Program-made: the position numbers and the translations under genes
Source of the DNA: Dehalococcoidia bacterium
GTDB taxonomy: Bacteria; Chloroflexota; Dehalococcoidia; SHYD01
Reading direction: 5' to 3'
DNA: 64,000 nucleotides
Assembly (NCBI GenBank): GCA_965261835.1
Contig: OZ253478.1
Span: 2,337,267 to 2,401,266 of the forward strand
Shown: piece after piece, positions 15,873 through 52,580 of the stretch
Position numbering within the stretch: the stretch's first letter is position 1
Layout: each line of letters opens with the position of its first letter
The notes under the pieces: generated by a model
The model's database searches: none
What the model was told of the DNA's origin: nothing
Seen by the model: the letters and a program-made list of their open reading frames with translations, nothing else

Positions 15873-16037
15873 GCGGTGGGCGTTGTGTGACGTTCACGCA
15901 CGGTATGCTCTCAGCAGCGCGTTAACGTCCCCAGGCCGCGGCTTCGACTTCGCTCCAAGAAGCCGCTATAATAGCATCTCAGTAGTAACGCACGCAGTAA
16001 CACAAACTGCGGCACATAAATGAACGCAAGGAACGTA

Positions 16038-17894
16038 ATGAACATCATCGTCTGCGTGAAACAAGTTCCCAACGTGGCCGCCATCAAGTTCGACCGTGAG
16101 GCCAAGACCATTGTTCGAGAGGGCGTCCCGCTTCAGCTCAATTCGCTAGACCGTAGAGCGCTTACTCAAGCGTTGGACCTCCGGGACCAACTTGGAGGTA
16201 AGGTCACGGTCATCTCCTTGGGGCCACCTCAGGCCAAGAGCGCGCTCATCGAATGTCTGGCCACCGGTGCAGACGAAGCGATTCTGATCTCAGATCGCGC
16301 CTTTGCGGGGTCGGACACCCTTGCCACCGCCCGCGCGCTGGCCGCAGCCATTCGGAAGCTCCCTTATGACGTGGTGTTCTGCGGCCGTTTCAGCATTGAC
16401 GCCGAGACCGGTCAAGTCGGGCCGGAGGTGGCCGAACTCCTCGACCTCCCGCACGCAACCAACCTCTTCCGCCTGACCGCTGAAGGCGATGGGACCCGGC
16501 TCACCGCGACCCGGGAAGTGGAAGAGGGCTTCGAGATTCTGGACGTGCAGACCCCCTGCCTGTTGACCGCCGGCGAGTTTCTGGTCACACCCCGACGCCC
16601 GACGCCCGACGAGATAGAGCAGTTCGAAGATCATCCGGTCGCAGTCTGGACCGCCGCCGATCTAGGACTAGCCGCCGACCAGATCGGCGCCGCCGGGTCA
16701 CCCACAACCGTGTCCGAGATCCAGGAGTTCGTGGTGCAGCGGGAACAGCGGGTGGTGCAGCAAGACGACCCCGATGCCGCCGCAAAGCTCATCATGGACT
16801 ACCTAATGGCGAAAGGACTTTCCCAACCTTGGGAACGCTCGGTGGCGGCAACGCCGGCGCGGCGGACCGGCGGCGCCCTACGCAGCGACCGCGCGGTCTG
16901 GGTGGTTGCAGACCACGCGCTGGGCCAACTCCGGCACGTGACGCTGGAGCTCCTGGGTAAGGGCGTGGAACTGGCGCACCAACTCAACGGGGAACTAATC
17001 GCCGTCCTCATTGGCAACGATGTGAGCGGCCTTGCGGACACCCTCGCCAGGTACGGCGCCGACCGGGTCTATCTGGCGGAGGACCCCACTTTGGCGCATT
17101 ACAACAGTGCCGCTTATAGCCACGTCCTGAGCGAGGCCATCACCCATTACAAGCCCTACGTGGTTCTGCTAGGAGCTACCATCAACGGGCGGGACCTTGC
17201 GCCGCGGGTTGCCGCCCGGCTGCAGCTTGGCCTCACCGGTGACGCCATTGACCTGGAGATCGATGCGCAGGAACAAGTAGTGCAGCTCAAGCCCGCCTTT
17301 GGCGGCAGCATTGTGGCGCCCATTATCTCCCGTACCGTACCCGTCATTGCTACCGTGCGCCCAGGCATGCTGGCCAGCTTAGCCCCCCAGCCGGAGCAAC
17401 GAGCCGTAGTGGAAAACCTGAATCTCACGTTGAGCAAAGATGACCGGGTACGGTTGTTGGAGTTCCAGCCCACAGTGGGCACACCCGGCTTGGAGCTGGA
17501 CAGCGCAGAGGTAGTGGTGGGCGTGGGCATGGGCGTAGGCAGTGCGGATAACGTGCCGCCCTTCCAAGCCCTTGCCGCTGCTTTTGACGGAGCGCTTGCC
17601 ACCACCCTACCTGCTGTTCGAGGAAAGGTCCTCCCTAGCCAGCTTCAAGTTGGGCTGACCGGCCGATCCATTGCACCGCGCTTCTATTTAGCATTTGCCA
17701 TCAGCGGCGCGCTTAACCACCTCATCGGCATCCAGCGCACCGAGACCATCGTGGCCGTCAACAAAGACCCCGAAGCCGCCATCTTCAAGAGCTGCGACTT
17801 CGGCATCGTCGGCGACTACACCACCATCGTTCCCGCCTTGACCAAACTGGCCAACGAGGCGAAACCAACGCTGGCAGTGCGTAGTACTCACTAG
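16038..17894 (+). CDS. etfBA: electron transfer flavoprotein, fused beta (N-terminal) and alpha (C-terminal) subunits
   Basis: N-terminus MNIIVCVKQVPN... is EtfB-like; from ~aa 290 onwards (VWVVADHALG...LIGNDVSGLADTL...FAD-binding C-terminus) is EtfA-like; a single uninterrupted 620-aa frame. ATG 16038 preferred over 16020. Confidence 0.8.
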   Translation: MNIIVCVKQVPNVAAIKFDREAKTIVREGVPLQLNSLDRRALTQALDLRDQLGGKVTVISLGPPQAKSALIECLATGADEAILISDRAFAGSDTLATARALAAAIRKLPYDVVFCGRFSIDAETGQVGPEVAELLDLPHATNLFRLTAEGDGTRLTATREVEEGFEILDVQTPCLLTAGEFLVTPRRPTPDEIEQFEDHPVAVWTAADLGLAADQIGAAGSPTTVSEIQEFVVQREQRVVQQDDPDAAAKLIMDYLMAKGLSQPWERSVAATPARRTGGALRSDRAVWVVADHALGQLRHVTLELLGKGVELAHQLNGELIAVLIGNDVSGLADTLARYGADRVYLAEDPTLAHYNSAAYSHVLSEAITHYKPYVVLLGATINGRDLAPRVAARLQLGLTGDAIDLEIDAQEQVVQLKPAFGGSIVAPIISRTVPVIATVRPGMLASLAPQPEQRAVVENLNLTLSKDDRVRLLEFQPTVGTPGLELDSAEVVVGVGMGVGSADNVPPFQALAAAFDGALATTLPAVRGKVLPSQLQVGLTGRSIAPRFYLAFAISGALNHLIGIQRTETIVAVNKDPEAAIFKSCDFGIVGDYTTIVPALTKLANEAKPTLAVRSTH

Positions 17895-19054: not shown

Positions 19055-19486
19055 TTACATCTTGAACTCGGCGGGTTCCACGTACTCCCAGGGCTCGCCG
19101 GCCCGGTACTTCGCGGCAATGTCCAGCACCTTCAGCGCGTACTGGAAAGCATAGGGCATACCGGGGCCGCCCGGCACAAAGCCACCGGCGATGGTCCCCA
19201 CCGCTACTGCCTCAAAGATCTCACCGTCAGTTGCGCCGGCTTCAATAGCCGGAATGACATGAATGAGGCAGGCCGGAGAGCGGTACGACACACCGATAGA
19301 TGTGAACATCAACTCTTTAATCTTCCGGGGGAGCGCGCCGTCCGCCCAAATGGTTGCGTAGAAATCGGAGAACGCTTCGCCTGCCGCAGGGTGAACGGTG
19401 TTGATGATCTGGAACATCCGGGGGGTGAAGAGCATCTTCTCTTTCATGTAAGCATTGGCTTGTTCGGCCCGGGACTGGGTAGTCAT
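19055..19486 (-). CDS. carboxymuconolactone decarboxylase (CMD) / AhpD-like family protein
   Basis: 143 aa; AhpD-like fold signatures; last gene of a 5-gene minus-strand operon. Confidence 0.75.
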   Translation of the reverse strand: MTTQSRAEQANAYMKEKMLFTPRMFQIINTVHPAAGEAFSDFYATIWADGALPRKIKELMFTSIGVSYRSPACLIHVIPAIEAGATDGEIFEAVAVGTIAGGFVPGGPGMPYAFQYALKVLDIAAKYRAGEPWEYVEPAEFKM

Positions 19487-19562: not shown

Positions 19563-20943
19563 TTAAGCGCTCAATAACGGTGGGTCCCGCGCCCGGTCCT
19601 GTGCTCCTAGGCTAAGCACTCGGTCTACAAACGCAGTCGAGAGCCCCAACGAGTTCCGCAGGTCAAACGCGGCGTCAAGATCATCTACTGAGAGATGCTT
19701 GACCGCCTCGGTCTGCTCCAACGCCGCTCGCAACGGCATGCTCTGCTCCACGGCGGTCATTGCAGCCTCGTACACCATCCAGTGTGCGGACTGCTTTCCC
19801 AGCTTCTGGGTGAGCACACCCATCACCGCTTCTGATGCCAGTAACCCGTTCTCTTCATGCAGATTGCGCCGCATCGCTACCGCGTCTATCACTAGTCCGG
19901 CCAGAACATCGCGCGTGATCTGCATCGATTTTCCCGCCAGTACGCATGCTTCCGGTAGTGCCACCCACTCCGCCTTCCAGGGGCGCCCGTCACGCTCGTG
20001 CTCCTGCACCACGCCCTCCAACAACACGGCGGCATCTGCCCGCACCAGCCGCGCGAGCGTTGAGAGGTGCTCCACTGTCTCAGGGTTGCGCTTGTGCGGC
20101 ATGGTGACGCTCCCAACCCTGCCCGGTTCGAAGGGCTCGTACGCTTCCCCGATCTCTGGCCGTTGCAGCGTATAGATCTCGGTGCCAATTTTGGCGCAGG
20201 TCTGGCTGACTAGCGCCAAGAAGTGGGCGAACTCCGCCAGGTTATCCCGCGCCGTGTTCCACACGATGTCCGGCACGCCCACACCCAAGCGGTCCATGAC
20301 CCGGCGTTGCAGCTCCAAGCCCTGCTCCGGCCAAAACGCCAGCGTGCCTACGCCGCCGCACAACTGTCCTAGAACCAACCGCGGCCGCAACTCCTTGAGA
20401 CGCTGAATATGACGGCGTAGCTCGCGCGCCCACACCGCAGCCTTGAAGCCAAAGGTAATGGGCAAGCCGGTCTGGCCGTGCGTGCGGCCGGGCATCATCG
20501 TGTCCCGATGCTCCCGCGCCAGGCGAAGACACTCCGCCTCAATAGCGCGCAGGTCACGATAAGCCACGTCGCAGACGGTGCGGAAGGCAATGGCGTTTGC
20601 GGTGTCGGTGATGTCATGAACGGTGGTGCCGTAGTTGATGTACTCGCCAGCCTCGCCGTCACACACGGTCTGCAACACCCGGATAGTCGAGAGCAATGAA
20701 TGGCTCGTCTCCTGGATGCCGCGGCGGATGGCCTCAATGTCCAACAGCTCAACCTTAGCCTTGCGCGCTACTTCCTCCGCTGCGGTAGATGGAATGAGAC
20801 CCAGCGCCGCCTGCTCCAGAGCGAGCGCCGCCAGCACATCCAGCCAGCGTTGTAACCGGGCGTTGTCGTCAAAGAGCTCACGGAGTTCAGGGGTGCTCCA
20901 GCTATCTCGAAACAGCTCGGAATCCATTAAGTGTACCGGCATG
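19563..20943 (-). CDS. aspartase/fumarase superfamily lyase, PcaB / adenylosuccinate-lyase-like
   Basis: Signature loop GSVTMPHKRNPETVEHL; ATG at 20943 (MPVHLMD...) preceded by GAGG; the longer ORF to 21074 has no support. Confidence 0.75.
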
Positions 20944-20968: not shown

Positions 20969-22501
20969 CTAGGAATCTTGTGTCTTGGGGAGCGCGTCCA
21001 CTGCTTGCATCTCGGCAAGTGCTACTAACCCTTGTTCCGCGCCGGCAATCCGGGCGGCCGTCTCCACGCGCCATGTCTCAGCGCTGGCAGTGGCAGCCCG
21101 CACTTCTTCGAGCATACGGGCGGTGGATGCAGGGGAGGCGCCGCCGACGCCCTGCCGTGCAGCCACCAGGGGGAACGGTGTCATCTCATCTTGCAAAAGC
21201 GATGGGCGTATCTTTAATGGCTGGCCCATCACCTCCTGCGCCCCCAGGTCAATTATCGCCGGTGTCATCGTAGGCGCTCCCTGTTCATGGGCCAAGCGAA
21301 CGGCGGCCCCCACAAGACGGTGCGCGGTACGGAAATCCAATCCGTGCTCCTGCACCAACACCTCTGCCAGGTCTGTGCCGTAGGTGTACCCTTCAGTCGC
21401 CCGCTGCGCCATCGCCACCGTGTTAACCGTGATGCTGGCAACCACTCCGGCCATTAACCGCACTGCCTCCAGCGCAAGGTCAAGGGTTGCGGGCACTTCT
21501 CCATACGCGAAGATTCGGTTGTCCACCTGGCCGGAAGGCGTTCTGCCTGTGACAGCCATAGCAGTCAGCTTACCCATGACCTGGCCTGACACGCCCCGGA
21601 TATACGCCAGTGCATAGGGGTTCTTCTTCTGCGGCATGATAATGCTGGTGCGCGCGTGCTCGTCTGCGAGTTCAATAAGACCGAACTCCTCTGTGCACCA
21701 GAGCTGGAGGTCTTCCGCCAGCCGGTCAACTTGCACCGTGAGCGCCACTACCGCCGCCGCTACCTCAATGGGCCCATCCGCCTGCCACATTGCGTCCCGC
21801 GGATGAGGCAGCACGTCGTCAAAGCCCAGCAGTTGGGCCAAGCGTTGCCGATCGAGCGGCAGCCGCGAGCCGTTTGTGCTACCGCCACCCGCCGGACTGC
21901 GGTTTACCCGTTGGAGCGCGGCCTGCAAGCGCTCCAAGTCCCGCAAGGCAGGATAGGCGAATCCCAGCAGGTAATGTGCCAGCGTGGTGGGGTGCGCGTG
22001 CTGCAAGTACGTGTAGTCCGGCATAACCGTCTGGAGATGGGCTTCTGCCTGATCGCATAGTGCGTTAAGGTATGCCGAGAGCGCCTCGGCGAGGTGCAGC
22101 AATCGCTTCCGGACCGCCAGGTGGTATGCCACCGTAGTCGCCTCCCGGCGAGCCCGTCCGGTAGAGAACCAACCGGCAGCGTCAGCATCTTGCTCCACCA
22201 GCCAGTGCTCCCGGTTGGTATACACGTCGCCCCGCTCAGGCGTGAGCGCAATGTGGTCGTATGAGAAGGCCTGCAGCTGCAAGAGCAGCGCTAGCAGCCG
22301 CCGGCCAGGCTCGGAAGGGACGATCCCGGTCTCGACCAGCATGAGCACGTGGGCTAAGTCGGACAACCCCATGCCCTCCCAAAGGTAGGGCGCAAGGCCT
22401 ACTTCCCAGCGGTACGCCGAAGCTACTAACTCGGGCGCGGGCGGCTGTTTTAGCCGCCCGGAGCTAGTCGTCCCCTTCCCAGGGGATGCCGTCTTCGACA
22501 T
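20969..22501 (-). CDS. aspartase/fumarase superfamily lyase, argininosuccinate-lyase-like
   Basis: Signature loop IMPQKKNPYALAYIRG (ArgH-type SxxMPQKKNP); ATG at 22501, or TTG at 22519; overlaps the upstream gene's 3' end. Confidence 0.75.
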   Translation of the reverse strand: MSKTASPGKGTTSSGRLKQPPAPELVASAYRWEVGLAPYLWEGMGLSDLAHVLMLVETGIVPSEPGRRLLALLLQLQAFSYDHIALTPERGDVYTNREHWLVEQDADAAGWFSTGRARREATTVAYHLAVRKRLLHLAEALSAYLNALCDQAEAHLQTVMPDYTYLQHAHPTTLAHYLLGFAYPALRDLERLQAALQRVNRSPAGGGSTNGSRLPLDRQRLAQLLGFDDVLPHPRDAMWQADGPIEVAAAVVALTVQVDRLAEDLQLWCTEEFGLIELADEHARTSIIMPQKKNPYALAYIRGVSGQVMGKLTAMAVTGRTPSGQVDNRIFAYGEVPATLDLALEAVRLMAGVVASITVNTVAMAQRATEGYTYGTDLAEVLVQEHGLDFRTAHRLVGAAVRLAHEQGAPTMTPAIIDLGAQEVMGQPLKIRPSLLQDEMTPFPLVAARQGVGGASPASTARMLEEVRAATASAETWRVETAARIAGAEQGLVALAEMQAVDALPKTQDS

Positions 22502-23288
22502 AGCGGCGCAGCGTCTCAAACCGAAGGCCGCAACGCAGCGCCTCTAGCACCAACACGTCCGAGGGACGGATGTTGGCCAGGTTTACGTTCGGCCCGAACC
22601 GTTGCACAAAATAGTCCTGCTGTTGCTTTAGCGGGGCTTCCCACATGATGTCGTCAACGCCATCGAGTCCAGCCAGGATTGCGTCCAACTTCTCCTCAAT
22701 CACATAGCCGCGCTCATCATAGATACCAACGCCTGTCCCGGACTGACGCGCTTCCATCGTCACTTTGCTGGCCCCGTTCTTCAGATCAAGCTGGATCTGT
22801 TCTAGCATAGCCTCCGACGAGGGCTGCTTAGTCGGATCCTTTTTGCCCACTTCGGAGAACACCTTGAGGCCTAGTTCTATAGAGCGACAAATGGCGTCCG
22901 CCCGCACTGACCCAGGCAAATCAATGGTTCCGTCTGAGACCTCAACCGCGGTGAATCCAAGATCACGCGTCCGCTGGAGGTACTGCGGGTAAACTCCCTT
23001 GAACACTGCGGCTTCAAACAAGGTGCCACCGGGGTACACATCGACACCTTGCGCCGTCATTGTCGCGATCTTTCGCTCTAGCAGCGTCCGCTCAAGAAAG
23101 ACCGATGTGCCGAAAGTGAGCTTCACTTGGTCGATGTAGTCGCCGGAAAGCTCCATAAGATCGTCAATGGCGGCCAGGCCCTGGCAGTGATCCAGCACCA
23201 TCGTGAGGCCGTTGTCACGCGGCTTGACTGCCCGTCCTTCAACAAGGTCTGGGAGAACCCCGTCCCATGGCCGATTGGCGGTCATCAT
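22464..23288 (-). CDS. comA: (2R)-phospho-3-sulfolactate synthase (ComA)-like protein
   Basis: 274 aa; TIM-barrel ComA-family regions (LTMVLDHCQGL...LSGDYIDQVKLTFGTS) resemble archaeal ComA and B. subtilis YitD; start overlaps stop of upstream gene. Confidence 0.7.
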   Translation of the reverse strand: MMTANRPWDGVLPDLVEGRAVKPRDNGLTMVLDHCQGLAAIDDLMELSGDYIDQVKLTFGTSVFLERTLLERKIATMTAQGVDVYPGGTLFEAAVFKGVYPQYLQRTRDLGFTAVEVSDGTIDLPGSVRADAICRSIELGLKVFSEVGKKDPTKQPSSEAMLEQIQLDLKNGASKVTMEARQSGTGVGIYDERGYVIEEKLDAILAGLDGVDDIMWEAPLKQQQDYFVQRFGPNVNLANIRPSDVLVLEALRCGLRFETLRRYVEDGIPWEGDD

Positions 23289-24172
23289 GTGCTGGTCTCG
23301 GAGGGAGTATCGGTGAAGCGTGCGGTGAAGTCCTCCAGCGCCGCTTCTATCTGGCGCAAAGTCGAGCCCCAGGGAACGGTGAGCCGGTTGCCCTCCACCT
23401 CACAGTTGAACTCGTACAGGCAGCACTTGAGCACCGTGGGCACGCCGTCCTGCGGAGCCAGGTCCCGGGGGCAGATATTTACCCACTCCGGCTCCTTGCC
23501 GTAGAAATGTTGGTATATCTCCAGCGAACGCTTGCATCCGAGGAGCAAGGCATCACCTGGGTCTTCGGGGCGCTGGTCCAGGGATAGCGCCGGCGCCTCT
23601 ATTTGAAAGCCGTCAACCTTGCAGGGCGTGATAATGCCAGACACCTGTCGCCCTTCCAGCAAGGAGTGCAGGTCGAGATTCTCCTCCCGCGCTTCTATGG
23701 CGGGCAAATCCGCATAGTCAATGACCTGCTGCACCAGAAGCGCCAGTTTGGCCGGAGACGGCGGCACCACGTCGAACACACGGAGCGGCATGGCCTTGGC
23801 CTCTAGGGTAAAGTTCACATGTTCGAAGCGGCCTTTGACCACCGCGGCCTTTTTGCCGCCATTGCGCGCGGCACGCGCCAGGTGGGTGGCGTTCATGACG
23901 TCAACGTCCGGATCCTCCACCCAGGCGGTATCCTCGGGCATCGCCAGAATTTCCACCGCAGTAATAGGACTGAATAGCGCATCCGGCTCTGCCCGCTTCA
24001 CCGCGGTTATGGCTACATCCGGCCCATTGTGGAGCGCCACGAAGTCGGTGCGCCGGTACCCCTCCTTACCGATCAGGTAGCGCGCAATGGTATCCCGCTC
24101 CAGCGGTATCGTCACATCCTGAACACTCACCTCACGGCACGTGCAGGCTGGTAGCTCTGGCGTTGCCTTCAT
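23285..24172 (-). CDS. hypothetical protein, first gene of the ComA/lyase operon
   Basis: 295-aa ORF with translational coupling (ATGA overlap) to the ComA-like gene; no motif I can name. Confidence 0.5.
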   Translation of the reverse strand: MKATPELPACTCREVSVQDVTIPLERDTIARYLIGKEGYRRTDFVALHNGPDVAITAVKRAEPDALFSPITAVEILAMPEDTAWVEDPDVDVMNATHLARAARNGGKKAAVVKGRFEHVNFTLEAKAMPLRVFDVVPPSPAKLALLVQQVIDYADLPAIEAREENLDLHSLLEGRQVSGIITPCKVDGFQIEAPALSLDQRPEDPGDALLLGCKRSLEIYQHFYGKEPEWVNICPRDLAPQDGVPTVLKCCLYEFNCEVEGNRLTVPWGSTLRQIEAALEDFTARFTDTPSETST

Positions 24173-24182
24173 ACCACACTCC

Positions 24183-24425
24183 TTATGGCTCTGACGGCCG
24201 TTTCCCTACAAAGATATACACCAGCCAGCCGATCATGAGCACGGCAAAGACTGGGAGTGTCCAATGGTAGCTCGAATCCGGCCAGAACACGATAAGGTAC
24301 AGTATCGCGGCCACCCACACGCCATAGTTGAACCACCGCATGAACGCCGGTGGCGCTCCCCGGCCAACGCGCACTTCGCCGCCTATTGGTTCATCGGAGC
24401 TGAGTGGCGCAGTCTCTCCGCTCAT
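24183..24425 (-). CDS. small two-helix membrane protein (possibly oxidase-associated CcoQ/FixQ-like)
   Basis: 80 aa; two hydrophobic helices; lies between the oxidase genes and the ComA operon on the same strand. Confidence 0.35.
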   Translation of the reverse strand: MSGETAPLSSDEPIGGEVRVGRGAPPAFMRWFNYGVWVAAILYLIVFWPDSSYHWTLPVFAVLMIGWLVYIFVGKRPSEP

Positions 24426-24623
24426 CTCTGTCAGGCTTCCTTAACCGTCACTATCATCAAAAACACGGTACTTAACCGCCTCGCCACTACTGCGAAACAA
24501 ACCGCTGCGCAACGCCCATAGCAGCAGCAGCCCCCACACCGCCACCGATAACGTGAAGGACGCAAATATGAGGACGTGGATTGGGTATAGCATGCAAATA
24601 GCGTACTGCTCTTCGTACTGCTC

Positions 24624-25109
24624 TTATTGTAGCGTAAGAAGGTAATCTGCCAAAGCCTCCAGCTCCACATCCGGGAGGTGACGGTAAAACGGCATGAGTG
24701 TACCCGGATTGAAGAGCTGTGGGTTTTTCAAATGCTGGATGTGCCACTCCCGGCTATTGCCCGGCGCACGGCTTGCCACATGAGAGAGGTCCGGCCCTTG
24801 GCGGCTGGTGCCCCACAGCACGGGTTGCTGATAGGCGTAATCCCCCGGCAGAGATTCCGGCCCGATGTCACCCTTAGTGCGCACCGTACCCGTATCAACC
24901 TCCACAGCACGCACTTGCTGGGTGTGACAATACACGCAGCCCTCACGGATGTAGATCGCCCGCCCTCTCAGCTCCTGAGCCGTGTACTGCACGGCCAGTG
25001 CCGTGGGTGGCGGCGACTCCACTACCGGCAGAACCACGGTGACCAACAAGCCCGCCACCAGAAAGACGAGCGACCCGATGAGCAGGTACGCAATGCTGGG
25101 TTGTCGCAT
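24624..25109 (-). CDS. ccoO: membrane-anchored mono-haem cytochrome c subunit (CcoO / FixO-like) of a C-family haem-copper oxidase
   Basis: N-terminal TM helix, single CVYCH haem-binding motif; immediately downstream of the catalytic subunit gene (8-bp gap). Confidence 0.7.
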   Translation of the reverse strand: MRQPSIAYLLIGSLVFLVAGLLVTVVLPVVESPPPTALAVQYTAQELRGRAIYIREGCVYCHTQQVRAVEVDTGTVRTKGDIGPESLPGDYAYQQPVLWGTSRQGPDLSHVASRAPGNSREWHIQHLKNPQLFNPGTLMPFYRHLPDVELEALADYLLTLQ

Positions 25110-25116
25110 ACTACGC

Positions 25117-26574
25117 CTACGCCTCTGCTACCCCAACCTGGGCAGGATGTCCCCTCTGGCGCACGGTGTTGATCAGGTTGTAAGCGAAGACAAACTGGCC
25201 TAGCACCATGGCAGCGCCCGCAAGCAATCGAATAAAGAAGAATGGTTGCAGAGAACGCACCGTCTCGATAAACGGAATACCACCCGTACTCCAGTTCTGG
25301 CCTTGTATAAGTCCCGCAATCCATAAACTGGTCATGAACACCACTAAACCAACCAGCGTCAGCCAGTAGTGCCACTCTAACAGCTTCTGGCTGGCAAAGG
25401 GCCGATCCAGCATGCGCGAGAGCAACGCATAGACTAACGCAATGCAGAGAAAAGTGTACGCTCCAAACAGCGCCAGGTGAGAGTGGCCAATGACCCAATT
25501 AGTGAAATGGACGTAGGCATTAAAGCCGCGAAACGACTGGGCGATCCCTTGGACACAGGTGAGAAAGTAAAAAATGCAGCCGGTAGCCACGAAACGCAAT
25601 GCCACGTCCGTCGCCATCTTGTGCCACGCGCCTTCCATGGTTTTCACAAAGTTCACCAGGAACGCCGCGTTGCCAATCCCTGCCAGTATGCTGAACGACA
25701 CGGACAGTAGCTCCAACCACTCTGGGCCGGGTCCATACAACAGGTGGTGCTGGCCCGTCCAAACGCTGGAAAAGCCCCATAGCGCCAGCCGGTGGCTGAA
25801 TAATGGGTTACCGGTTAAACGCGGCAGCAAGTAGAAGAACAGTCCCAACGCACCCGTGGTGAACCAGATATTGAAAATATTGTGCACGTAGAAGAAGTTC
25901 ATGATGGCGTCACCCGTGCCCAAATAGGCGCCACTCGGGTCCCAAATCTTGTTCCCTAACGCGTACACCACCGGGCCAATAGCCGTGGCAGCCATTGCGC
26001 TCCAGACCGTGATGTACATCCGCGGCTCTTTCCGGCGCCAAACCGTTTGCCAGATGTTGACCGCCACCAACACAAAGCACAGCATCAGCAGTAGGTCTAG
26101 GGGCCAAACCGCCTCGGCGTACTCCCGCCCCTGGGTGAAGCCCAACGGTAGAGTCAGCGCCACGCCCAGCACAAAAGCATTCCAGAGCACCAGGGTGACT
26201 CGAGCCAGCCACTCGGAATAGAGCGCCGTGCCGGTAAGCCGTGGGACAAGGTAGAGCAACGCGCCCACGTAGACCATGGACAGCCATCCAAACATCGCCA
26301 CGTTGACGTGCATCGGGCGCAGGCGGCCGAAGATTACCGCTGGGCGGAGTGCCTCAGGGACCCATTCCTGGGTGCGGGCATCGAGGAGGAAAAACGACAT
26401 CACCAGGCCCACGAGCACCGGGAGCATGAGCCAGAAGGCGCCCGAATAGAGGAACCACCGAGCCGCCAAATCATGCCGCTCGGCACGCCTATCAGAAGAT
26501 AGGGGTGATGTTATGACGTGGGGCAGGGTCACAACGGCGCCATTCTCCCGCTTTCCAGGTTCATGTACCCGCAA
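25117..26574 (-). CDS. ccoN: haem-copper oxidase catalytic subunit I, cbb3-type (CcoN-like) or related NO-reductase family
   Basis: 12-TM protein with conserved His ligands (MHVNVAMFGWLS; WTGQHHLLYGPG; IGHSHLALFGA); subunit order N-O as in cbb3 oxidases. Confidence 0.75.
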   Translation of the reverse strand: MRVHEPGKRENGAVVTLPHVITSPLSSDRRAERHDLAARWFLYSGAFWLMLPVLVGLVMSFFLLDARTQEWVPEALRPAVIFGRLRPMHVNVAMFGWLSMVYVGALLYLVPRLTGTALYSEWLARVTLVLWNAFVLGVALTLPLGFTQGREYAEAVWPLDLLLMLCFVLVAVNIWQTVWRRKEPRMYITVWSAMAATAIGPVVYALGNKIWDPSGAYLGTGDAIMNFFYVHNIFNIWFTTGALGLFFYLLPRLTGNPLFSHRLALWGFSSVWTGQHHLLYGPGPEWLELLSVSFSILAGIGNAAFLVNFVKTMEGAWHKMATDVALRFVATGCIFYFLTCVQGIAQSFRGFNAYVHFTNWVIGHSHLALFGAYTFLCIALVYALLSRMLDRPFASQKLLEWHYWLTLVGLVVFMTSLWIAGLIQGQNWSTGGIPFIETVRSLQPFFFIRLLAGAAMVLGQFVFAYNLINTVRQRGHPAQVGVAEA

Positions 26575-26880
26575 GGCACAGCGCTGACACGCTGCATTTT
26601 GTTATCTCTACACCGCTCAACAGGCCGTCCAAAGATGACGCGCCTGAGGCCTACGAACCATTGCTGTGAACGGTTGAAGGTTACTATGGGTAACAGGAAC
26701 GATAGTAGCCATGAGGTGTCCTGCTTGTAAAGCAGGAAGTAGCAATGGCGCCACGTTCTGCGGGGAACAACCAACCTGGAGGCAAGAAAAACACCGGGTG
26801 CGGCTGGCGCCCGCCGCGGCGGAAAGCGCACACACGAGACTTTCCCCCTTCAACCGCGCCTCCTTACGCTTCTCTATCTG

Positions 26881-26919
26881 TTGACCCCTTAGTCAGACAA
26901 CGCTATGCTAAAATAGCAT
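26881..26919. promoter_or_regulatory. candidate operator sequences in the divergent ccoN / metE-like intergenic region
   Basis: TTGAC-N6-GTCAG (26881-26896) followed by a perfect 15-bp palindrome ATGCTA-AAA-TAGCAT (26905-26919); TATAAT at 26944-26949. Confidence 0.3.
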
Positions 26920-27010
26920 GCAGCGCGCGGGATACAACCACACTATAATGCTGTTCGCGTGCCGGACAGAAACCTTTTTCGCATTCTTTATCCTAGGAAA
27001 GTAGGCAACT

Positions 27011-28186
27011 ATGTCTCTCAACAACCTCCCACTATTTCCAGTGACCGTTGTCGGAAGCTGGCCGCGGCCCTCATACCTGGTTGATGCGTTCCGTAAGCGT
27101 AAGGCGGGCCGTCTTAGCTTTAAGGATCTCAACGAGATGGCGGACCAGGCAGTGCTGGAAGCACTACGCTATCAGGATGAAGCGGGCGTCGACATCGTGA
27201 GCGACGGTGAGCAACGGCGGGACAACTTCTACTCCTTTGTCGTGGAGAAACTGGACGGCATTGAGCTCATGTCGCTGGCAGAGATCATGGACGTAGTGAG
27301 CGACAAGGCCTCCTTCGACCAGATCCTTCGCAGCATGGATGCTCCCGCGTTCGCCATTCATAACCCCACCGTAACGGGTCGCATCGAGCGACGGACGTCG
27401 CTGGCCTTGGACGAGTACGAGTTCCTACGGCAGCACACCGACAAGCCCATCAGAGTTGCCCTGCCCGGTCCGTACCTGTTGGCCCGCTCCATGTGGGTTG
27501 CCGGCATCACCGACAAAGCGTACCCATCCCAGGAAACCCTGGCCGATGATATCGTGCGCGTGCTACGGGAAGAGGTGTTGGAGTTAAAGGCTGCGGGGGT
27601 CGAGTTCATCCAGTTCGATGAGCCGGTCATCACCGACGTTGTCTTCCGCCCAGAACGCAAGGAGCGCACTTTCATGTGTGCGTCTATGGCCGCTACCACC
27701 GGTGACGCCGATGAAGAGCTCTACAAGGCGGCCTACTTGATGAACCAAGTTATGCGGGATATCGACGGGATCAAGACGGGCGTCCATGTCTGCCGGGGCA
27801 ACTGGAGCCGCCAAGAGGGCGCGCTGCTCGCCGGCACCTACGAACCACTGATGGGGTGCATGATGGACATGCCCGTCGATCAGCTGGTGTTGGAATATGC
27901 TACGCCGCGCGCCGGCGAGCTGGCTGTTTTCAGCAAGTACCCCAAGCAAAAAGAGATCGGCCTCGGCGTGATTAATCCCCGCACCGACGAGATAGAAGGG
28001 CCGCAGTCCGTGATTGACCGGACAGAGGAGGCCCTCAAGTACTTCGCGCCGAATCAGATCTACCTCAACCCCGACTGCGGCTTCGGCACCTTTGCCGAGC
28101 GGCCAATGAACCCCGCGGACATTGCTGCGCAGAAGGTGGCCGTCATCAGCCAGGCGGCACAGGAACTCCGGAAACGGCACGGGTAG
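27011..28186 (+). CDS. cobalamin-independent methionine synthase (MetE) C-terminal-domain-like protein
   Basis: 391 aa; UroD/MetE-like fold signatures (VVGSWPRP...VDIVSDGEQRRDNF...HVCRGNW). Confidence 0.8.
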   Translation: MSLNNLPLFPVTVVGSWPRPSYLVDAFRKRKAGRLSFKDLNEMADQAVLEALRYQDEAGVDIVSDGEQRRDNFYSFVVEKLDGIELMSLAEIMDVVSDKASFDQILRSMDAPAFAIHNPTVTGRIERRTSLALDEYEFLRQHTDKPIRVALPGPYLLARSMWVAGITDKAYPSQETLADDIVRVLREEVLELKAAGVEFIQFDEPVITDVVFRPERKERTFMCASMAATTGDADEELYKAAYLMNQVMRDIDGIKTGVHVCRGNWSRQEGALLAGTYEPLMGCMMDMPVDQLVLEYATPRAGELAVFSKYPKQKEIGLGVINPRTDEIEGPQSVIDRTEEALKYFAPNQIYLNPDCGFGTFAERPMNPADIAAQKVAVISQAAQELRKRHG

Positions 28187-28192
28187 GCAGCT

Positions 28193-28717
28193 ATGACCAA
28201 CAGCCAAGAGACGAACGGGATTGACACCAGCGCCCTGACCGAGGCGCTCGAAACGGTCAGGGAGGCCGGTGCCCGCAGCGGGCCAAAGGCCGCCCGGGTG
28301 CGGTGGGTGGGTGGACTCAAGCTGCGCTCTTACGTGCGCAACCACTCGTTCATGATCGATGAACCCACTCATCTCACCGGTGAGGATGAAGCGCCCAACG
28401 CGTTGGAATACGTGCTCGGTGCGCTGGGGGCATGCTACGCCACCGGCTTTGTGCTGAATGCTACGCTGCGAGGCATAGAGCTCTACAACCTAGAAGTCAC
28501 TATGGACTCCACCCAGGACAATGTCTTCACCTTCCTGCAGCTTGAAGAGGCGGGACACTCCGGCTTCGACAACATTACCGCCAAGCTTTACGTGCAGGCT
28601 GACGCAGATGAAGCAGTGCTCCGGGAAATTTGGGAGACTACCCTCCAAACTTCACCCGTGGGCAATTCTCTCACCCGCACCGTGGCCATCAAACCGGAAC
28701 TCTCGGTGTTGGGCTGA
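28193..28717 (+). CDS. OsmC/Ohr family peroxiredoxin-like protein
   Basis: 174 aa; conserved Cys pair regions (LGALGACYATG) typical of OsmC. Confidence 0.75.
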   Translation: MTNSQETNGIDTSALTEALETVREAGARSGPKAARVRWVGGLKLRSYVRNHSFMIDEPTHLTGEDEAPNALEYVLGALGACYATGFVLNATLRGIELYNLEVTMDSTQDNVFTFLQLEEAGHSGFDNITAKLYVQADADEAVLREIWETTLQTSPVGNSLTRTVAIKPELSVLG

Positions 28718-31823: not shown

Positions 31824-34800
31824 ATGACGGGCCAGCTATTCACCGACTACTTTCTCACCGCCGGCATCAAGGCCACCGAGGAGTGGCGGGAGTCAGACAC
31901 CGCGTTTGCCGCCTTCCGGGCCACCCTCGGCGCGCGCTACCGGCAGTTCAGCAGCAACCAACAACCCAACGAAGCCACTACCGAGCAGGAGCTGATCCGC
32001 CCGGTCCTGGAGGCGCTGGGATGGACTGACCACCTGCCGCAGCAGGGCACAACCGGTAACGAGGACATCCCGGACAATCTCCTGTTCATCGATGCGGCGT
32101 CCAAGGACCGCGCCGCCGGTCGAGCCAACCCGCAAGAACGCTACCAGGACGCCGCGGTGGTCGAAGAGAGCAAGCAGTTCGGTCTGAAGCTAGACGCCCT
32201 TACCAAAGCCCCCGGACAACACAGCAAGACGCCACACAGCCAGATACTCCAATACCTCTCGACTGCCGAGATCGCGTCGGAGAGCCGGATCCGCTGGGGG
32301 TTCCTGACCAACGGCGGCGTGTGGCGGCTCTACGACCAACGCGCCCGCCCGCGCGCCACCGGCTACTTCGAAGCCGACCTCGGGAAGCTGCTCGACTCTG
32401 GCGACGCAGACGCCCTGCGCGCCTTCTACCTGCTGTTCCGCCGCGACTCGTTCACCCGCACCAAGGGGGCCACCGCCACCTTCCTCGTGCAGGCGCTGGC
32501 CGAGGGCCGCCGCTACGAGGAGCAGGTGGCGCGGAACCTCTCCAGCGTGGTCTTCGATCAGGTCTTCCCCCGGCTGGTAACCGCACTCGCCAGCACGCCA
32601 GGGGTAGCGCTGCCGGAGGCGCGCGATGCCGCGCTGATCTTCCTCTACCGGCTGCTGTTCGTGCTTTACGCCGAGGACCGCGGGCTGCTCCCCGTCAACG
32701 ACGAGCGTTACGAAGACTACGGCCTGCGCAAGCCGGTACGCGATGATATCGCCCACAAGCAGACCACTGGCGCGCCCTTCTCGTCCGTGGCCACCGCCTA
32801 CTACGACCACCTGATGCAGCTGTGGCGACTCATCGACAAGGGCGACGCGTCCATCGGCCTGCCGCCCTACAACGGCGGCCTGTTCGCCGACGAGGCCGCC
32901 CCGCTGCTGGCGCGGGCCCGCCTGCCCGACGCGGTGGTCGCCCCGATCGTCTACGACCTTAGCCACGCTGAAACCGCCGACGGGCGCCGCTTCGTCAACT
33001 ACCGCGACATGTCGGTCCAGCAGCTCGGCTCGATCTACGAGCGGCTGCTGGAGCAGGAGCCGGTCCGCGCCGACGACGGCGGGATCGTCATCCGCCCCAA
33101 CAGCTACGCCCGCAAGGACAGCGGTAGCTTCTACACGCCGCAGGAGCTGGTCGACCTGATCGTCGACCGGACGCTGAAGCCGCTGGCGGAGGAGCGGCTG
33201 CGAGCATTCGAGCAGAAGGCCGCCGCGCTGAAGCACGACCACCGGCCCAAGTCCGAACGGCTGGCCGATCTGCGCAAGCTGGACCCCGCCGAGGCTGTCC
33301 TCGACCTCAAGGTGCTCGACCCCGCCATGGGCAGCGGCCACTTCCTGGTCACCGCCGTCGACTTTCTGTCCGACTACATCGCCGATCTGGTCGAGTCCGT
33401 GCCGGCGGTGCCGGACTGGCTGGATGGCGCGGGCGAGTATGAATCGCCGTTGGTGGGGCGGGTGGCCGCGATTCGGGACGACATTCGCGGCCGGGCCCGG
33501 CAGGCGGGATGGGTGATAGACGAGGAGGCCCAACTCACCGACCAAGCCATCATCCGCCGCATGGTGCTCAAGCGCTGCATCTACGGCGTGGACAAGAACC
33601 CCCTCACCGTGGAGCTGGCCAAGGTCTCGCTCTGGCTCCACAGCTTCACCGTCGGCGCGGCGCTCTCTTTCCTCGACCACCACCTCCGCTGCGGCGACTC
33701 CCTGGTCGGTTTGCGGGTGCGGGAGGCCAGGGACGAGTTGCTCCGGTTTGGCCCCATGTTTACTTCGAGCGCCGTCGCGGGGGCGGAAGCCGCCGCGGCC
33801 GGAATGCAGCGCATCGAGGAGATGTCCGACGCCGACATCTCGGAGGTAGAGCAGTCCGCCGCATTGTTCCGAGGCGTCGAGCAGACTACTGCTGACCTAC
33901 GCGGCCTGCTGGACTTCCTCACCGGCTTGCACTGGCACACCGCGGGGATGAAATCGAAGGAGCGCGCGGCCATCGAGGGGCACATCGCCGTGGCGCTGGG
34001 GGCGGACCAAGCGAACGGCTTGCAGCTACTGGCGCACGGCCCGGCGCATGGCCCAAACGAGAACGCCACCACCGCGCCCGCGGACGGCTCCTCACCCTAC
34101 GCTGCGCTGTGGCAGAACGCCACCGGCATCGCCGACCGTGAAACGTTCCTGCACTGGGAGGCGGCCTTCCCCGGCGTCTGGCAACGGTGGCAGGAAGCGC
34201 AACCCCAAGGCGGCTTCGACGCCGTCATCGGTAACCCGCCATGGGACCACATTGAACAGCCAGAGGTAGAGTGGTTCGCCACTCGTTCGCCTGACATAGC
34301 CCTGGCGCCGACCGCGGCTGCCCGCAAGACCTACATACAGCGGCTGCGCAACGCCGGGGCGCCACTGGCCGCCGAGTTCGACGCCGCCAAGGCGCAGGCC
34401 GATGACCTGGGCCAACTGGTGCGCGCGTCCGGCCATTACCCCCTGCTGAGCGGCGGCCGCATCAACCTCTACTCCCTGTTTGTCGAGCGCGCCATGGGGC
34501 TTGTCAAGCCGGACGGATTCGTCGGGCTGCTCACGCCATCGGGCATCTACGCCGACAAGACCGCCGCCGACTTCTTCAAGTCCATCTCAACCAGCGGGCG
34601 GGTAGCTGGGATATTCGATTTCGAGAATCGCCGCTCCGGAATGAGGCTACCGCACTTCTTCCCTGATGTCGACTCAAGGTTCAAGTTTTGCGCCCTGATA
34701 TTCGGCGGGGAGGAGCGACGATTTGATGAGACCGCGTGCGCCTTCTTCCTCCACGACACCGCGACCATCGAAGACCCCGACCGCTGTTTCCCGCTGGCGC

Positions 34801-35873
34801 CGGCGGACTTTGCCAGGGTGAACCCCAACACCGCCACCGCGCCGATCTTCCGCACCTGCCGCGACGCCGACATCACCCGCGGCATCTACGAGCGGCATCC
34901 GGTGCTGGTGGACCGCTCCGGGGGTGACGAGCGCCGCGCCTGGCCGGTCAAGTTTATGCAGGGGCTATTCAATATGACTTCAGACTCCCACCTGTTCCGG
35001 ACCGCGGCCCAGCTCGAAGCTGCGGGCTTCTACCCGGTCCAGGGCAACCGCTGGAAGAAGGGCGAGGAGACCTACTTGCCGCTGTACCAGGGCCGGATGA
35101 TCCGGCACTTCGACCACCGCGCCAACTCGGTCCGAGTCAACCCTGAGAACACGCACAATCCCTACCTGAGCCAGGAGGTCAGCGCAGCGCAGCACGCGGA
35201 TCCCAGCTTTCTGCCACATACTCAATACTGGGTGCCGGCCGTCGAGGTGGAGTCGGCTTTGCCCGAAAGTCGCGGGTACACGCTAGCGTTCCGTGACATT
35301 ACCAATCCTACCAACATGAGAACGATGATCGCTTCCATCGTTCCAGCGGTAGGTTTTGGGCACACAGCTCCCCTACTTATCGGAGACGACACCCTGGCTG
35401 CCACGTGTCTCGTGGCGAATCTGAATGCCCTATGTCTGGACTTCGTTACGAGACTAAAGGCCCAAGGCACCCATATGAACTGGTTCATCGTCGAGCAACT
35501 CCCCGTCATCGCGCCCGACGGCTACGACCGGCGGTTCGGGGAAAAGACGGCCCGTGAGATCGTCCGTGACCACGTGCTCCGCCTCAGCTACACCGCGCAC
35601 GACATGGCGCCGTTCGCCCGCGACCTCGGCTACGACGGCCCGCCGTTCATCTGGGACGAGGAGGCGCGCCGCCACCTGCGGGCCCGGCTCGACGCGCTGT
35701 ACTTCCACCTCTACGGGCTGAGCAAGGACGACGCGGGCTACATCCTCGGCACCTTCCCCATCGTGCAGCGGCAAGACGAGGCGGCGTTCGGGCGCTACCG
35801 CACGCGCGAGCTAGTGCTGGCATACATGAACGCCCTCGCCGCCGGCGACACCGAGACCGTGATGGCGGTGTAA
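31824..35873 (+). CDS. single-polypeptide type IIG/IIL restriction-modification enzyme (MmeI-like; nuclease + N6-adenine DNA methyltransferase + target-recognition region)
   Basis: N-terminal HsdR-N-like PD-(D/E)xK domain (IPDNLLF...VVEESKQF...QILQYL...GFLTNGGVWRLY); MmeI-like helical region (LLFVLYAEDRGLLP, PYNGGLFADE); MTase motif I KVLDPAMGSGHFLV and motif IV VIGNPPWDHIEQ; ~450-aa C-terminal region with no Walker A (GxxxxGK[ST]) motif seen. Confidence 0.75.
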   Translation: MTGQLFTDYFLTAGIKATEEWRESDTAFAAFRATLGARYRQFSSNQQPNEATTEQELIRPVLEALGWTDHLPQQGTTGNEDIPDNLLFIDAASKDRAAGRANPQERYQDAAVVEESKQFGLKLDALTKAPGQHSKTPHSQILQYLSTAEIASESRIRWGFLTNGGVWRLYDQRARPRATGYFEADLGKLLDSGDADALRAFYLLFRRDSFTRTKGATATFLVQALAEGRRYEEQVARNLSSVVFDQVFPRLVTALASTPGVALPEARDAALIFLYRLLFVLYAEDRGLLPVNDERYEDYGLRKPVRDDIAHKQTTGAPFSSVATAYYDHLMQLWRLIDKGDASIGLPPYNGGLFADEAAPLLARARLPDAVVAPIVYDLSHAETADGRRFVNYRDMSVQQLGSIYERLLEQEPVRADDGGIVIRPNSYARKDSGSFYTPQELVDLIVDRTLKPLAEERLRAFEQKAAALKHDHRPKSERLADLRKLDPAEAVLDLKVLDPAMGSGHFLVTAVDFLSDYIADLVESVPAVPDWLDGAGEYESPLVGRVAAIRDDIRGRARQAGWVIDEEAQLTDQAIIRRMVLKRCIYGVDKNPLTVELAKVSLWLHSFTVGAALSFLDHHLRCGDSLVGLRVREARDELLRFGPMFTSSAVAGAEAAAAGMQRIEEMSDADISEVEQSAALFRGVEQTTADLRGLLDFLTGLHWHTAGMKSKERAAIEGHIAVALGADQANGLQLLAHGPAHGPNENATTAPADGSSPYAALWQNATGIADRETFLHWEAAFPGVWQRWQEAQPQGGFDAVIGNPPWDHIEQPEVEWFATRSPDIALAPTAAARKTYIQRLRNAGAPLAAEFDAAKAQADDLGQLVRASGHYPLLSGGRINLYSLFVERAMGLVKPDGFVGLLTPSGIYADKTAADFFKSISTSGRVAGIFDFENRRSGMRLPHFFPDVDSRFKFCALIFGGEERRFDETACAFFLHDTATIEDPDRCFPLAPADFARVNPNTATAPIFRTCRDADITRGIYERHPVLVDRSGGDERRAWPVKFMQGLFNMTSDSHLFRTAAQLEAAGFYPVQGNRWKKGEETYLPLYQGRMIRHFDHRANSVRVNPENTHNPYLSQEVSAAQHADPSFLPHTQYWVPAVEVESALPESRGYTLAFRDITNPTNMRTMIASIVPAVGFGHTAPLLIGDDTLAATCLVANLNALCLDFVTRLKAQGTHMNWFIVEQLPVIAPDGYDRRFGEKTAREIVRDHVLRLSYTAHDMAPFARDLGYDGPPFIWDEEARRHLRARLDALYFHLYGLSKDDAGYILGTFPIVQRQDEAAFGRYRTRELVLAYMNALAAGDTETVMAV

Positions 35874-35878
35874 GTCTA

Positions 35879-36035
35879 CCCCCGTCATTGCGAGGAGCCT
35901 GCGACGTGGCAATCCGGGGTGGGGTGGCCGGCCGGTCGCGGGGAGTGTCCCCTGCCCCCGCTTCCCCAAGCGCCCCGCCCCCACCCCAGATTGCTTCGCT
36001 GCGGCTCGCAATGACGGGAAGCGGGGGGAGCCGCG
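35879..36035. repeat. ~155-bp long imperfect palindrome (MITE/REP-like element), copy A
   Basis: Terminal inverted repeats CCGTCATTGCGAGG ... CCTCGCAATGACGG; internal complementary arms CAATCCGGGGTGGGG / CCCCACCCCAGATTG; ~95% identical to copy B. Confidence 0.8.
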
Positions 36036-36289
36036 CGTGGGCGTCGAATATATCGCCGAAGGTGGAACCCGGCCAGGCAGCGTCCTTGCAGGCTTGAAGC
36101 GCGTCGCAACCTGCAGAGTGCATGGCAAGTTGCAACTGGCTGGGTTCGCCGGTAGTATCGTCCGCATCAGGCAGGAATGATAGTGCGGGCTGACCGACGA
36201 ATTATGAGTTCCGCATGGGGCTATCAGCTATGGCACCCGATGCAGTAACGGTGTTGCTGAATTTGTAATCGACCGAAAGGAGCGCTGGT

Positions 36290-36772
36290 ATGGCGGGAGG
36301 TCAACATGGGTTTACTTTCACCATCTTTGGACTCTTTGGCGCCGCAATAGTATTCGGAATCCCGTGGCTCGCTGGGAAGATTCTGCCTTTTATGGAATCC
36401 CCCAGCTTGGGCAGCCCGACAGGCTGGGTATTGTGCGGGGTCGGCGGCGTTGCCGGGGTTATTCTAGCCCAGATCGCGCTCACCGGCTGGCACAAAACGT
36501 GGCGGTCATGGGCCACATATGCCCTCCTTGTGGGTTCCATCTATGGAATTTTCGCCATCGCAGGGTGGTACATTGAGGCCAATCCAGACTCGGCCCTGCT
36601 GGAGACAATTACAGAACTGGGCCAAAATTTGTCTTTAGAGCCGGAGAATTTAGTCCTCATATTGTTTGTCGGTATTCCCATAGTGTTTATCGGTATTCCC
36701 ATATTGCTGTCCGTTATATTGTTCGCCCTTGTACTCTGGAAGGGGGACAGCAGCGGGAAATCTCGTCGGTAA
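36290..36772 (+). CDS. small polytopic membrane protein (4-5 TM), lower-GC cargo gene between the two palindromic repeats
   Basis: AAGGAG 7 nt upstream of ATG; Gly/Ile/Phe-rich TM segments; local GC clearly below flanks. Confidence 0.55.
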   Translation: MAGGQHGFTFTIFGLFGAAIVFGIPWLAGKILPFMESPSLGSPTGWVLCGVGGVAGVILAQIALTGWHKTWRSWATYALLVGSIYGIFAIAGWYIEANPDSALLETITELGQNLSLEPENLVLILFVGIPIVFIGIPILLSVILFALVLWKGDSSGKSRR

Positions 36773-36786
36773 CGCGAGGGGGTGGC

Positions 36787-36940
36787 TCTCCCCCCGTCAT
36801 TGCGAGGAGCCCGCGACGTGGCAATCCGGGGTGGGGTGGCCGGCCGGTCGCGGGGAGTGTCCCCTGCCCCCGCTTCCCCACGCGCCCCTCCCCCGCCCCA
36901 GATTGCTTCGCTGCGGCTCGCAATGACGAGAAGCGGGGAG
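36787..36940. repeat. ~155-bp long imperfect palindrome (MITE/REP-like element), copy B
   Basis: Near-identical to copy A over ~150 bp, same orientation, 908 bp downstream. Confidence 0.8.
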
Positions 36941-36996
36941 CCGAGTACCTTGGGCAGCGGCATCTGGTCCGCCGTGTCCGAGTTGAGGATATGGTG

Positions 36997-37833: not shown

Positions 37834-37989
37834 GAAGCTATTATGCCACAATCTATGGCCGTTAAATCAGATGGAGAATCGTCACGCTCCATGACAACTG
37901 CCCAGTGTGCGCTCACCCAATTGGGGTACGCTACAATAACAGGCACACGAACAGCCGCACGCGGCCCGGTTAGGTGAGGGCAGGGCGCC

Positions 37990-51372: not shown

Positions 51373-51432
51373 TACCCGCGTAGCGAATACCCGCAGAACT
51401 GCACGTATGGAATACCTGCAAGGAGGCGCATC

Positions 51433-52491: not shown

Positions 52492-52517
52492 CCCGCAACA
52501 GTTAGCAAAAGCATACT

Positions 52518-52560
52518 AAAGGTGGTAGTATCAACAACCTGATACTACCACCTTTATTTT
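52518..52560 (+). terminator. rho-independent terminator between dioxygenase paralogs 2 and 3
   Basis: Perfect 16-bp stem AAAGGTGGTAGTATCA / TGATACTACCACCTTT with 6-nt loop followed by ATTTT. Confidence 0.8.
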
Positions 52561-52580
52561 CACCCTAGGAGGAACGGAAC

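Follow-up and report, generated by a model that had tools for sequence, protein, structure and literature searches.

A Dehalococcoidia XcbA-family protein as a candidate terminal reductase of coenzyme M synthesis

What does a 295-residue protein do when its gene runs directly into that of a ComA-like phosphosulfolactate synthase in a bacterium of the Dehalococcoidia? The gene lies on the minus strand (23285..24172) of a 64,000-nucleotide stretch of contig OZ253478.1 (assembly GCA_965261835.1, positions 2,337,267 to 2,401,266), which we call the window. An earlier interpretation, made from the letters alone and referred to here as the sequence-only reading, saw no motif in the protein, considered it unannotatable, and proposed that it supplies a missing step of sulfonate biosynthesis in place of the pyridoxal phosphate (PLP) enzyme of the Xanthobacter route. 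Our analysis assigns the protein to the XcbA family, and we put at about 0.6 the probability that it catalyses the final reduction in a coenzyme M (CoM) pathway of the xcb type, its gene being co-translated with xcbB and followed by xcbC and xcbD. Direct support comes from its family membership, its homology to XcbA of Xanthobacter autotrophicus Py2, five conserved cysteines and tight linkage to xcbB, xcbC and xcbD.

Family identity and conserved cysteines

The reading frame runs from an ATG start to a TGA stop and encodes 295 residues, as the sequence-only reading had it, with an AAGGAG Shine–Dalgarno sequence 6 nt 5' of the ATG. The plus-strand bases TCAT at 23285-23288 read ATGA on the minus strand, so that the stop codon of xcbA (23287-23285) and the start codon of comA (23288-23286) overlap by 4 nt; this overlap, too, had been called correctly. 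Since the protein has 118 homologue clusters, relatives in 400 species genomes and a 99% identical copy on a 2,829,693-bp contig of a metagenome-assembled genome (MAG), we regard xcbA as a real gene. The same contig carries an enolase 98% identical to that of the window, all of whose named relatives come from Dehalococcoidia or Chloroflexota MAGs. For XcbA, too, the closest genome match is a Dehalococcoidia MAG, and the 90%-identity cluster that holds the window protein contains 15 member sequences, on contigs of up to ~3 Mb.

The protein does carry a recognizable family signature. It matches Pfam PF24830 (DUF7714) with 228.4 bits (cutoff 25, E 1.3e-67, residues 11-284) and NCBIfam NF052538, ‘XcbA family protein’, with 295.7 bits (cutoff 150, residues 11-284 of 295), so the description ‘unannotatable’ does not hold. 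When plasmids were searched by tblastn with the window protein, six records were matched, including pXAUT01 of X. autotrophicus Py2, where the match falls on Xaut_5051, the gene directly 5' of the phosphosulfolactate synthase gene. In pairwise comparison the window and Py2 proteins are 38.9% identical over 280 residues (E 3.5e-67). On these sequence grounds the 295-residue protein belongs to the XcbA family (DUF7714), and the gene should be named ‘XcbA family protein’ and not ‘hypothetical’.

The Py2 protein was named XcbA by Wu et al. (2022; PMC9457059). It is reddish-brown and gives a [2Fe-2S] electron paramagnetic resonance signal that can be reduced by dithionite, with a potential of -372 mV, and in vitro it converts the XcbE product, sulfoethanethioaldehyde, to coenzyme M, the final reductive step (PMC9457059). 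Nine cysteines but no recognizable motif were noted, and ferredoxin:thioredoxin reductase was suggested as an analogue (PMC9457059). Our literature searches on DUF7714, thioaldehyde reductase and Chloroflexota xcb genes or coenzyme M biosynthesis found nothing beyond this study. Among the roles that the sequence-only reading had guessed, amination, reduction or a carrier function, reduction is thus the one that agrees with the published role of XcbA (PMC9457059); the protein has no PLP-family signature.

We aligned XcbA twice, with 21 diverse members (including those of Py2 and Nocardioides sp. JS614) and with 111 members. Five cysteines, C184, C213, C234, C250 and C251 in the window numbering, are invariant in both alignments and give the signature PC-x28-GC-x20-CP-x15-KCC; Y39, R41, H118, K142 and a VPWG motif are invariant as well. 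The JS614 protein contains just these five cysteines and no others, and the candidate functional cysteines are therefore five and not the nine of Py2 XcbA. An AlphaFold2 model built on the 111-sequence alignment predicts an alpha/beta protein (mean predicted local distance difference test score 94.9, predicted template-modelling score 0.89) in which all five invariant cysteines are at or just past the ends of beta-strands in the C-terminal third. From the secondary-structure string of this model we infer that the five may share one site. The sequence-only reading had looked to structure prediction as a check on the protein, and this gave a confident model but no fold relative: Foldseek returned no match in the PDB at E<=1e-3, and a profile search of PDB sequences with XcbA found nothing.

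The family to which the protein belongs is small. An exhaustive HMMER search of 1.84 billion representatives yielded 624 XcbA-family proteins at E<=1e-3, a size of ~600 clusters at 50% identity, and lengths were mostly about 280-320 residues among the 150 matches listed. Given 624 proteins among so many representatives, the family is isolated as well. In ferredoxin:thioredoxin reductase an Fe-S cluster beside redox-active cysteines passes two electrons to a sulfur substrate, the same logic as that proposed for XcbA, and by analogy the C250–C251 pair, together with an additional CxC motif of the clade described below, would fit a scheme of this type. The two share no sequence or fold kinship, as Pfam and NCBIfam return only DUF7714/XcbA and the PDB gives no match, so that the likeness is one of analogy only. 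The archaeal CoM synthase MMP16/ComF (COG1900), which uses sulfoacetaldehyde and a sulfur donor, resembles XcbA in catalysing the last, thiol-forming step of CoM synthesis and in being a cysteine-rich metalloprotein (PMC12068725). It differs in substrate and belongs to an unrelated family, with no match to XcbA in the Pfam and NCBIfam searches.

The xcb cluster and its conservation across genomes

Three xcb-type genes follow xcbA on the minus strand. The first, xcbB/comA (22464..23288), encodes a phosphosulfolactate synthase of 274 residues (PF02679, E 2e-83) that scores 306.9 bits against TIGR03849 (cutoff 280) and is 49% identical to Py2 XcbB, and on this basis we score XcbB as present. The next gene, at 20969..22501, encodes an aspartase/fumarase-superfamily lyase of 510 residues, taking as its start the ATG at 22501, in line with the gene call in the sibling strain (locus L001); the mechanical open reading frame (ORF) reaches a TTG at 22519. 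This lyase scores 552.9 bits against the XcbC model NF052535, just under the cutoff of 575, and also passes the argH model TIGR00838. Because it falls just below the XcbC ‘exception’ model yet passes the argH equivalog, it is likely to be labelled, wrongly, as argininosuccinate lyase by automatic pipelines. We favour XcbC, since xcbB and xcbD flank the gene and its product is 45% identical to Py2 XcbC over 457 residues. The third gene, xcbD (19563..20942), encodes a 3-sulfopropionylcysteine synthase-type adenylosuccinate-lyase homologue of 459 residues when read from the ATG at 20942, as in the L001 and L005 gene calls (the mechanical ORF reaches 21074). With 614 bits against NF052536 (cutoff 600) and 42% identity to Py2 XcbD, it shows that XcbD, too, is present.

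The last co-directional gene (19055..19486, minus strand) stands where canonical operons have xcbE. It encodes a 143-residue protein related to carboxymuconolactone decarboxylase (CMD) and AhpD (PF02627, E 4e-8), and its PDB relatives are CMD/AhpD proteins. The usual CxxC motif is SxxC here (‘RSPAC’) and ‘CSPRC’ in Anaerolineales and Caldilineaceae. Orthologues are found in the Chloroflexota xcb loci L089 (15034-15465), L019 (1-462) and L026 (8931-9401), and the gene occurs both with and without xcbE. As a plain substitute for XcbE it is a weakened candidate: the Caldilineaceae locus L026 carries both, and the gene is therefore better seen as accessory.

If the window cluster works as its Py2 counterpart does, ComA would form phosphosulfolactate from sulfite and phosphoenolpyruvate, and XcbC would eliminate phosphate to give sulfoacrylate, the conversion catalysed by Py2 XcbC. 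XcbD would then add L-cysteine to form 3-sulfopropionyl-cysteine, which a PLP enzyme (in Py2, XcbE, of the ACC-deaminase/D-cysteine-desulfhydrase type) would cleave and decarboxylate to sulfoethanethioaldehyde. In the last step XcbA would deliver two electrons, through a [2Fe-2S] cluster and/or a redox-active cysteine pair, to produce 2-mercaptoethanesulfonate (coenzyme M). Judged by its sequence, the window protein would do the same job as Py2 XcbA, with the PLP-dependent step presumably supplied from elsewhere in the genome.

The likeness to Py2 extends to gene order. Py2 XcbA (Xaut_5051, XAUT_RS25610) is a full-length homologue in the same Pfam and NCBIfam families with the same five invariant cysteines, and its gene is likewise the first of the xcb block, directly 5' of the ComA homologue. 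The window protein differs from it in having an additional N-terminal C-T-C motif and a tyrosine in place of the near-universal His220. Moreover, the window operon closes with the CMD/AhpD-like gene where Py2 has xcbE and is not adjoined by alkene/epoxide CoM-pathway genes; its location is on the chromosome of a Dehalococcoidia MAG, whereas the Py2 cluster is on a catabolic megaplasmid. XcbA proteins on plasmids of Nocardioides sp. JS614 (pNOCA01) and Mycolicibacterium chubuense NBB4 are 40-41% identical to that of the window. In these actinobacterial clusters, as in the clade of the window protein, XcbA adjoins XcbD; unlike in the window, the order is B-A-D-E-C, XcbE is present, and the genes are linked to epoxyalkane:CoM transferase (EaCoMT) and alkene catabolism.

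We scanned one genome per species for 185,579 species, found relatives of XcbA in 400 and examined the best 80 loci; co-occurrence was counted in the 44 loci whose flanks reached 6 kb or more on each side, for genes within 8 kb of XcbA. XcbD is near XcbA in all 44, XcbE in 43/44, XcbC in 42/44 and XcbB (ComA) in 39/44. Two gene orders dominate, A-B-C-D-E in 28 loci and B-A-D-E-C in 14. EaCoMT lies within ~10 kb in 39/44 loci and 2-KPCC (XecC) in 25/44. Co-occurrence with comA-like genes, which the sequence-only reading had put forward as a test of a functional link, is thus strongly positive. Together with the xcbB, xcbC and xcbD neighbours it upholds the proposal of a sulfonate-biosynthesis operon, of the coenzyme M type, in which the protein is functionally tied to the ComA-like product. 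A scan of metagenome contigs with the window protein returned 5 distant loci only, none from the Dehalococcoidia subclade described below.

These counts bear directly on the proposal that the 295-residue protein itself replaces the PLP enzyme (with amination, C-S cleavage or decarboxylation as its task) or acts as a carrier. The absence of XcbE from the window and the translational coupling of XcbA to ComA speak for it. However, XcbA and XcbE occur together in 43 of 44 loci, so that XcbA is a companion of the PLP enzyme and no replacement for it; the Py2 route itself includes XcbA, and both proteins are required for reconstitution of the Py2 pathway (PMC9457059). The protein shows neither a PLP-family signature nor a fold match to PLP enzymes, and sister lineages recruit another PLP enzyme while XcbA is kept. 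We consider the replacement very improbable and already largely refuted by the co-occurrence data.

Missing partners and a Dehalococcoidia subclade

Several observations weigh against a straightforward transfer of the Py2 role to the window protein. The biochemical role of XcbA comes from one in vitro study, in Py2. No tblastn match for Py2 or JS614 XcbE was found in the 64-kb window (E<=0.01), and Pfam scans of the window gave no PALP-domain ORF; the sequence-only reading was right that the Xanthobacter-route PLP enzyme is absent here. Without XcbE in the window, it is not obvious where the substrate published for XcbA would come from. Neither EaCoMT nor 2-KPCC/XecC was found in the window, which thus holds no known CoM-using enzyme near the cluster. 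Since XcbE is missing and no CoM consumer is nearby, the transfer of Py2 chemistry is weakened. Furthermore, the protein belongs to a divergent subclade: 19 clusters are 61-71% identical to it, whereas identity does not exceed 46% for the remaining 92 homologues of the 111-sequence alignment. Members of the subclade have an N-terminal C10-T-C12 motif (window sequence; C10 conserved in 95% and C12 in 100% of the clade) that virtually no other family member has, and a tyrosine at position 220, where 97% of other sequences have histidine. All five core cysteines are retained in the subclade.

It could be that the cluster is decaying, an incomplete remnant in which xcbA has no current function; the lack of XcbE and of all known CoM-dependent enzymes in the window would fit this. 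Against it, all ORFs are intact, the family-invariant residues are all retained, XcbA falls in a 90%-identity cluster of 15 sequences, and the A-B-C-D-CMD arrangement is kept in L089 at 64-80% protein identity. The intact ORFs, the 15-member cluster and the synteny with L089 make a remnant the least credible of the explanations that we considered.

The gene contexts of the subclade raise an alternative that deserves more weight. XcbE is found in none of 11 independent subclade contexts, within the flanks available, as against 43/44 canonical loci. The arrangement A-B-C-D-CMD is seen in two contexts, the window (with its sibling strain L001) and L089. The order A-D-rhodanese occurs in five (L005, L085, L088, L090 and L096), A-D-class-V PLP enzyme in one (L092), and A-D-class-V PLP enzyme-rhodanese in three (L093, L102 and the contig carrying P0015). 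In 9/11 contexts, therefore, a class-V PLP enzyme, a rhodanese or both stand beside XcbA-XcbD, whereas the window and L089 lack the two. The class-V enzyme of these relatives resembles SufS, CsdA and EgtE, although it lies under every curated cutoff, and the rhodanese resembles 3-mercaptopyruvate sulfurtransferase. The earlier suggestion of a missing pathway step is therefore correct as to the absent PLP enzyme, but in the sister lineages it is the class-V enzyme and the rhodanese, and not XcbA, that hold the place of XcbE beside xcbD.

One explanation of these contexts, which we regard as a whole as possible though doubtful, is that XcbA and XcbD of the subclade act in a route free of XcbE, in which sulfur would be inserted and the C-S bond cleaved by a class-V PLP enzyme, by a persulfide relay through a rhodanese, or by both. 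In the window, the CMD/AhpD-like protein or an unlinked enzyme might take their place. The XcbA step would then be related to that of Py2 without being identical (redox or sulfur transfer), the CxC motif may be an added redox pair, and the product may be CoM or another mercapto-sulfonate. Such a route agrees with the lack of XcbE in all 11 subclade contexts, with the absence of a rhodanese or class-V gene from every one of the 80 canonical loci, and with the clade-specific C10, C12 and Tyr220. Moreover, the lyases beside XcbA in the subclade still pass the XcbD model, with 611-631 bits. Cysteine desulfurase-type class-V enzymes produce alanine. The XcbE reaction as published may also release alanine, and this common product makes it chemically plausible that the sister lineages have replaced XcbE by a non-orthologous enzyme.

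Other observations count against the XcbE-free route. The 64-kb window contains neither a class-V gene nor a rhodanese, and no close class-V orthologue attributable to the window genome was seen, which is weak negative evidence. XcbE could be unlinked in this genome, and the CMD gene, being found alongside XcbE in L026, is no simple substitute. The five core cysteines and most other invariant residues are unchanged in the subclade, which argues for conserved chemistry. We prefer the reading of the window protein as the terminal reductase of an xcb-type pathway.

Two further features of the subclade loci may be recorded. In four of them (L093:3172-7579, L102:7554-11956, L092:2146-5790 and L085:10001-13274) the genes form a compact module of xcbA, xcbD, a class-V ‘cysteine/cystine lyase’-like gene and/or a gene for a two-domain rhodanese; comA and xcbC are absent within the flanks of these modules. 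The module may carry out the late CoM steps in a sulfur-relay version, or it may serve a pathway whose substrate is another enoate. An SdhB/SdhA-like pair (Fer2_3 and FAD_binding_2) lies divergently beside xcbA-xcbD at L088:6311-8732, L090:4007-4708, L093:465-2973 and L102:4923-7433, a placement that could be due to chance or to a fumarate/thiol redox link.

Surrounding genes and wider meaning

The sequence-only reading had placed the gene at the head of its operon. It is the first xcb gene, but co-directional oxidase-type genes end 10 nt upstream. All are on the minus strand: an ORF of 80 residues (24183..24425) encoding a predicted membrane protein with two transmembrane segments, conserved in L001 and L089; an ORF of 50 residues (24441..24593); an unusually short ccoO-like gene of 161 codons (24624..25109; Pfam FixO, NCBIfam ccoO below cutoff); and a ccoN-like gene of 485 codons (25117..26574; Pfam COX1, NCBIfam ccoN below cutoff). 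The 80-residue ORF is the one that ends 10 nt 5' of xcbA, and the genes upstream of it are spaced by 7-30 nt; the sole sizeable non-coding gap, at 26575..27010, lies upstream of the ccoN-like gene. The gene order upstream is identical in L089, whose XcbA is a 69% identical relative. Scans of the window for consensus promoters and terminators gave counts at chance level, so operon boundaries were inferred from gene spacing. It is questionable whether xcbA heads its transcript, which possibly includes the 80-residue ORF. The oxidase set as a whole (24183..26574) resembles a cbb3-type oxidase, with all NCBIfam scores well under the ccoN and ccoO cutoffs, and may be a divergent heme-copper oxidase or an enzyme of the nitric oxide reductase type.

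Divergent from the xcb genes, on the plus strand at 27011..28717, are genes for a MetE-family protein of 391 residues and an OsmC-like protein, which are kept beside the xcb cluster in L089. The MetE-like protein (27011..28186) is the only XecA-like match in the window; we rejected it as EaCoMT, the identity being 24% and its scores under every NCBIfam cutoff, and a thiol-alkyltransferase role for it is conceivable but unsupported. Between its OsmC and acyl-CoA dehydrogenase genes, the sibling strain carries two additional genes (L001:2967-4648), a DUF4365 gene and one of 394 codons, both of which are absent from the window.

Two further window proteins were considered for roles in sulfonate metabolism and set aside. 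A thiamine pyrophosphate enzyme (37990..39615), considered as sulfopyruvate decarboxylase or Xsc, is acetolactate-synthase-like and below cutoffs, and a luciferase-like monooxygenase (LLM) family protein (60788..61966), considered as a sulfonate monooxygenase, resembles F420-dependent LLM oxidoreductases. Elsewhere the window encodes, on the plus strand, an EtfB-EtfA fusion (16020..17894), an electron-transfer flavoprotein of 624 residues, and an AhbA-AhbB siroheme decarboxylase fusion of 349 residues (40420..41469). A defence-type island (31824..37851) combines a type IIG restriction-modification protein of 1349 residues (Eco57I/N6_Mtase) with an AbiJ_NTD4 protein. Three tandem LigB-family extradiol dioxygenase paralogues, an RraA-like aldolase gene and four major facilitator superfamily transporter genes at 50314..60696 suggest an island for the catabolism of aromatic compounds.

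In bacteria, the only use known for coenzyme M had been as a cofactor in the breakdown of alkenes and epoxides, and the pathway of five enzymes that makes it was not complete until 2022. Of these five, XcbA is understood least: it has neither relatives nor a solved structure, and no physiological reductant is known for it. The present analysis narrows its candidate functional cysteines from the nine of the Py2 protein to five invariant ones and shows that the family is small and tightly bound to XcbD. The family is thus a known one, and the novelty, which is modest, lies in the subclade, with its CxC motif, its obligatory pairing with XcbD, its sulfur-handling neighbours and its lack of XcbE and of any known CoM-dependent enzyme nearby. 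In this Chloroflexota subclade XcbE is consistently absent, and in most members sulfur-trafficking genes stand in its stead. Tentatively, and with the odds against it, the Dehalococcoidia XcbA/XcbD pair with CxC might define an alternative late stage of mercaptoethanesulfonate synthesis, free of XcbE and served by a class-V PLP enzyme and a rhodanese persulfide relay or, in the lineage of the window, by some other partner, in organisms with no known CoM-dependent enzyme; if true, this would mean that CoM, or a thiol-sulfonate related to it, has a new function in bacterial physiology. Should the variant be functional, it would offer natural experiments on the mechanism of XcbA and would suggest that abundant, uncultured Dehalococcoidia lacking an epoxide pathway contain CoM or a CoM-like thiol.

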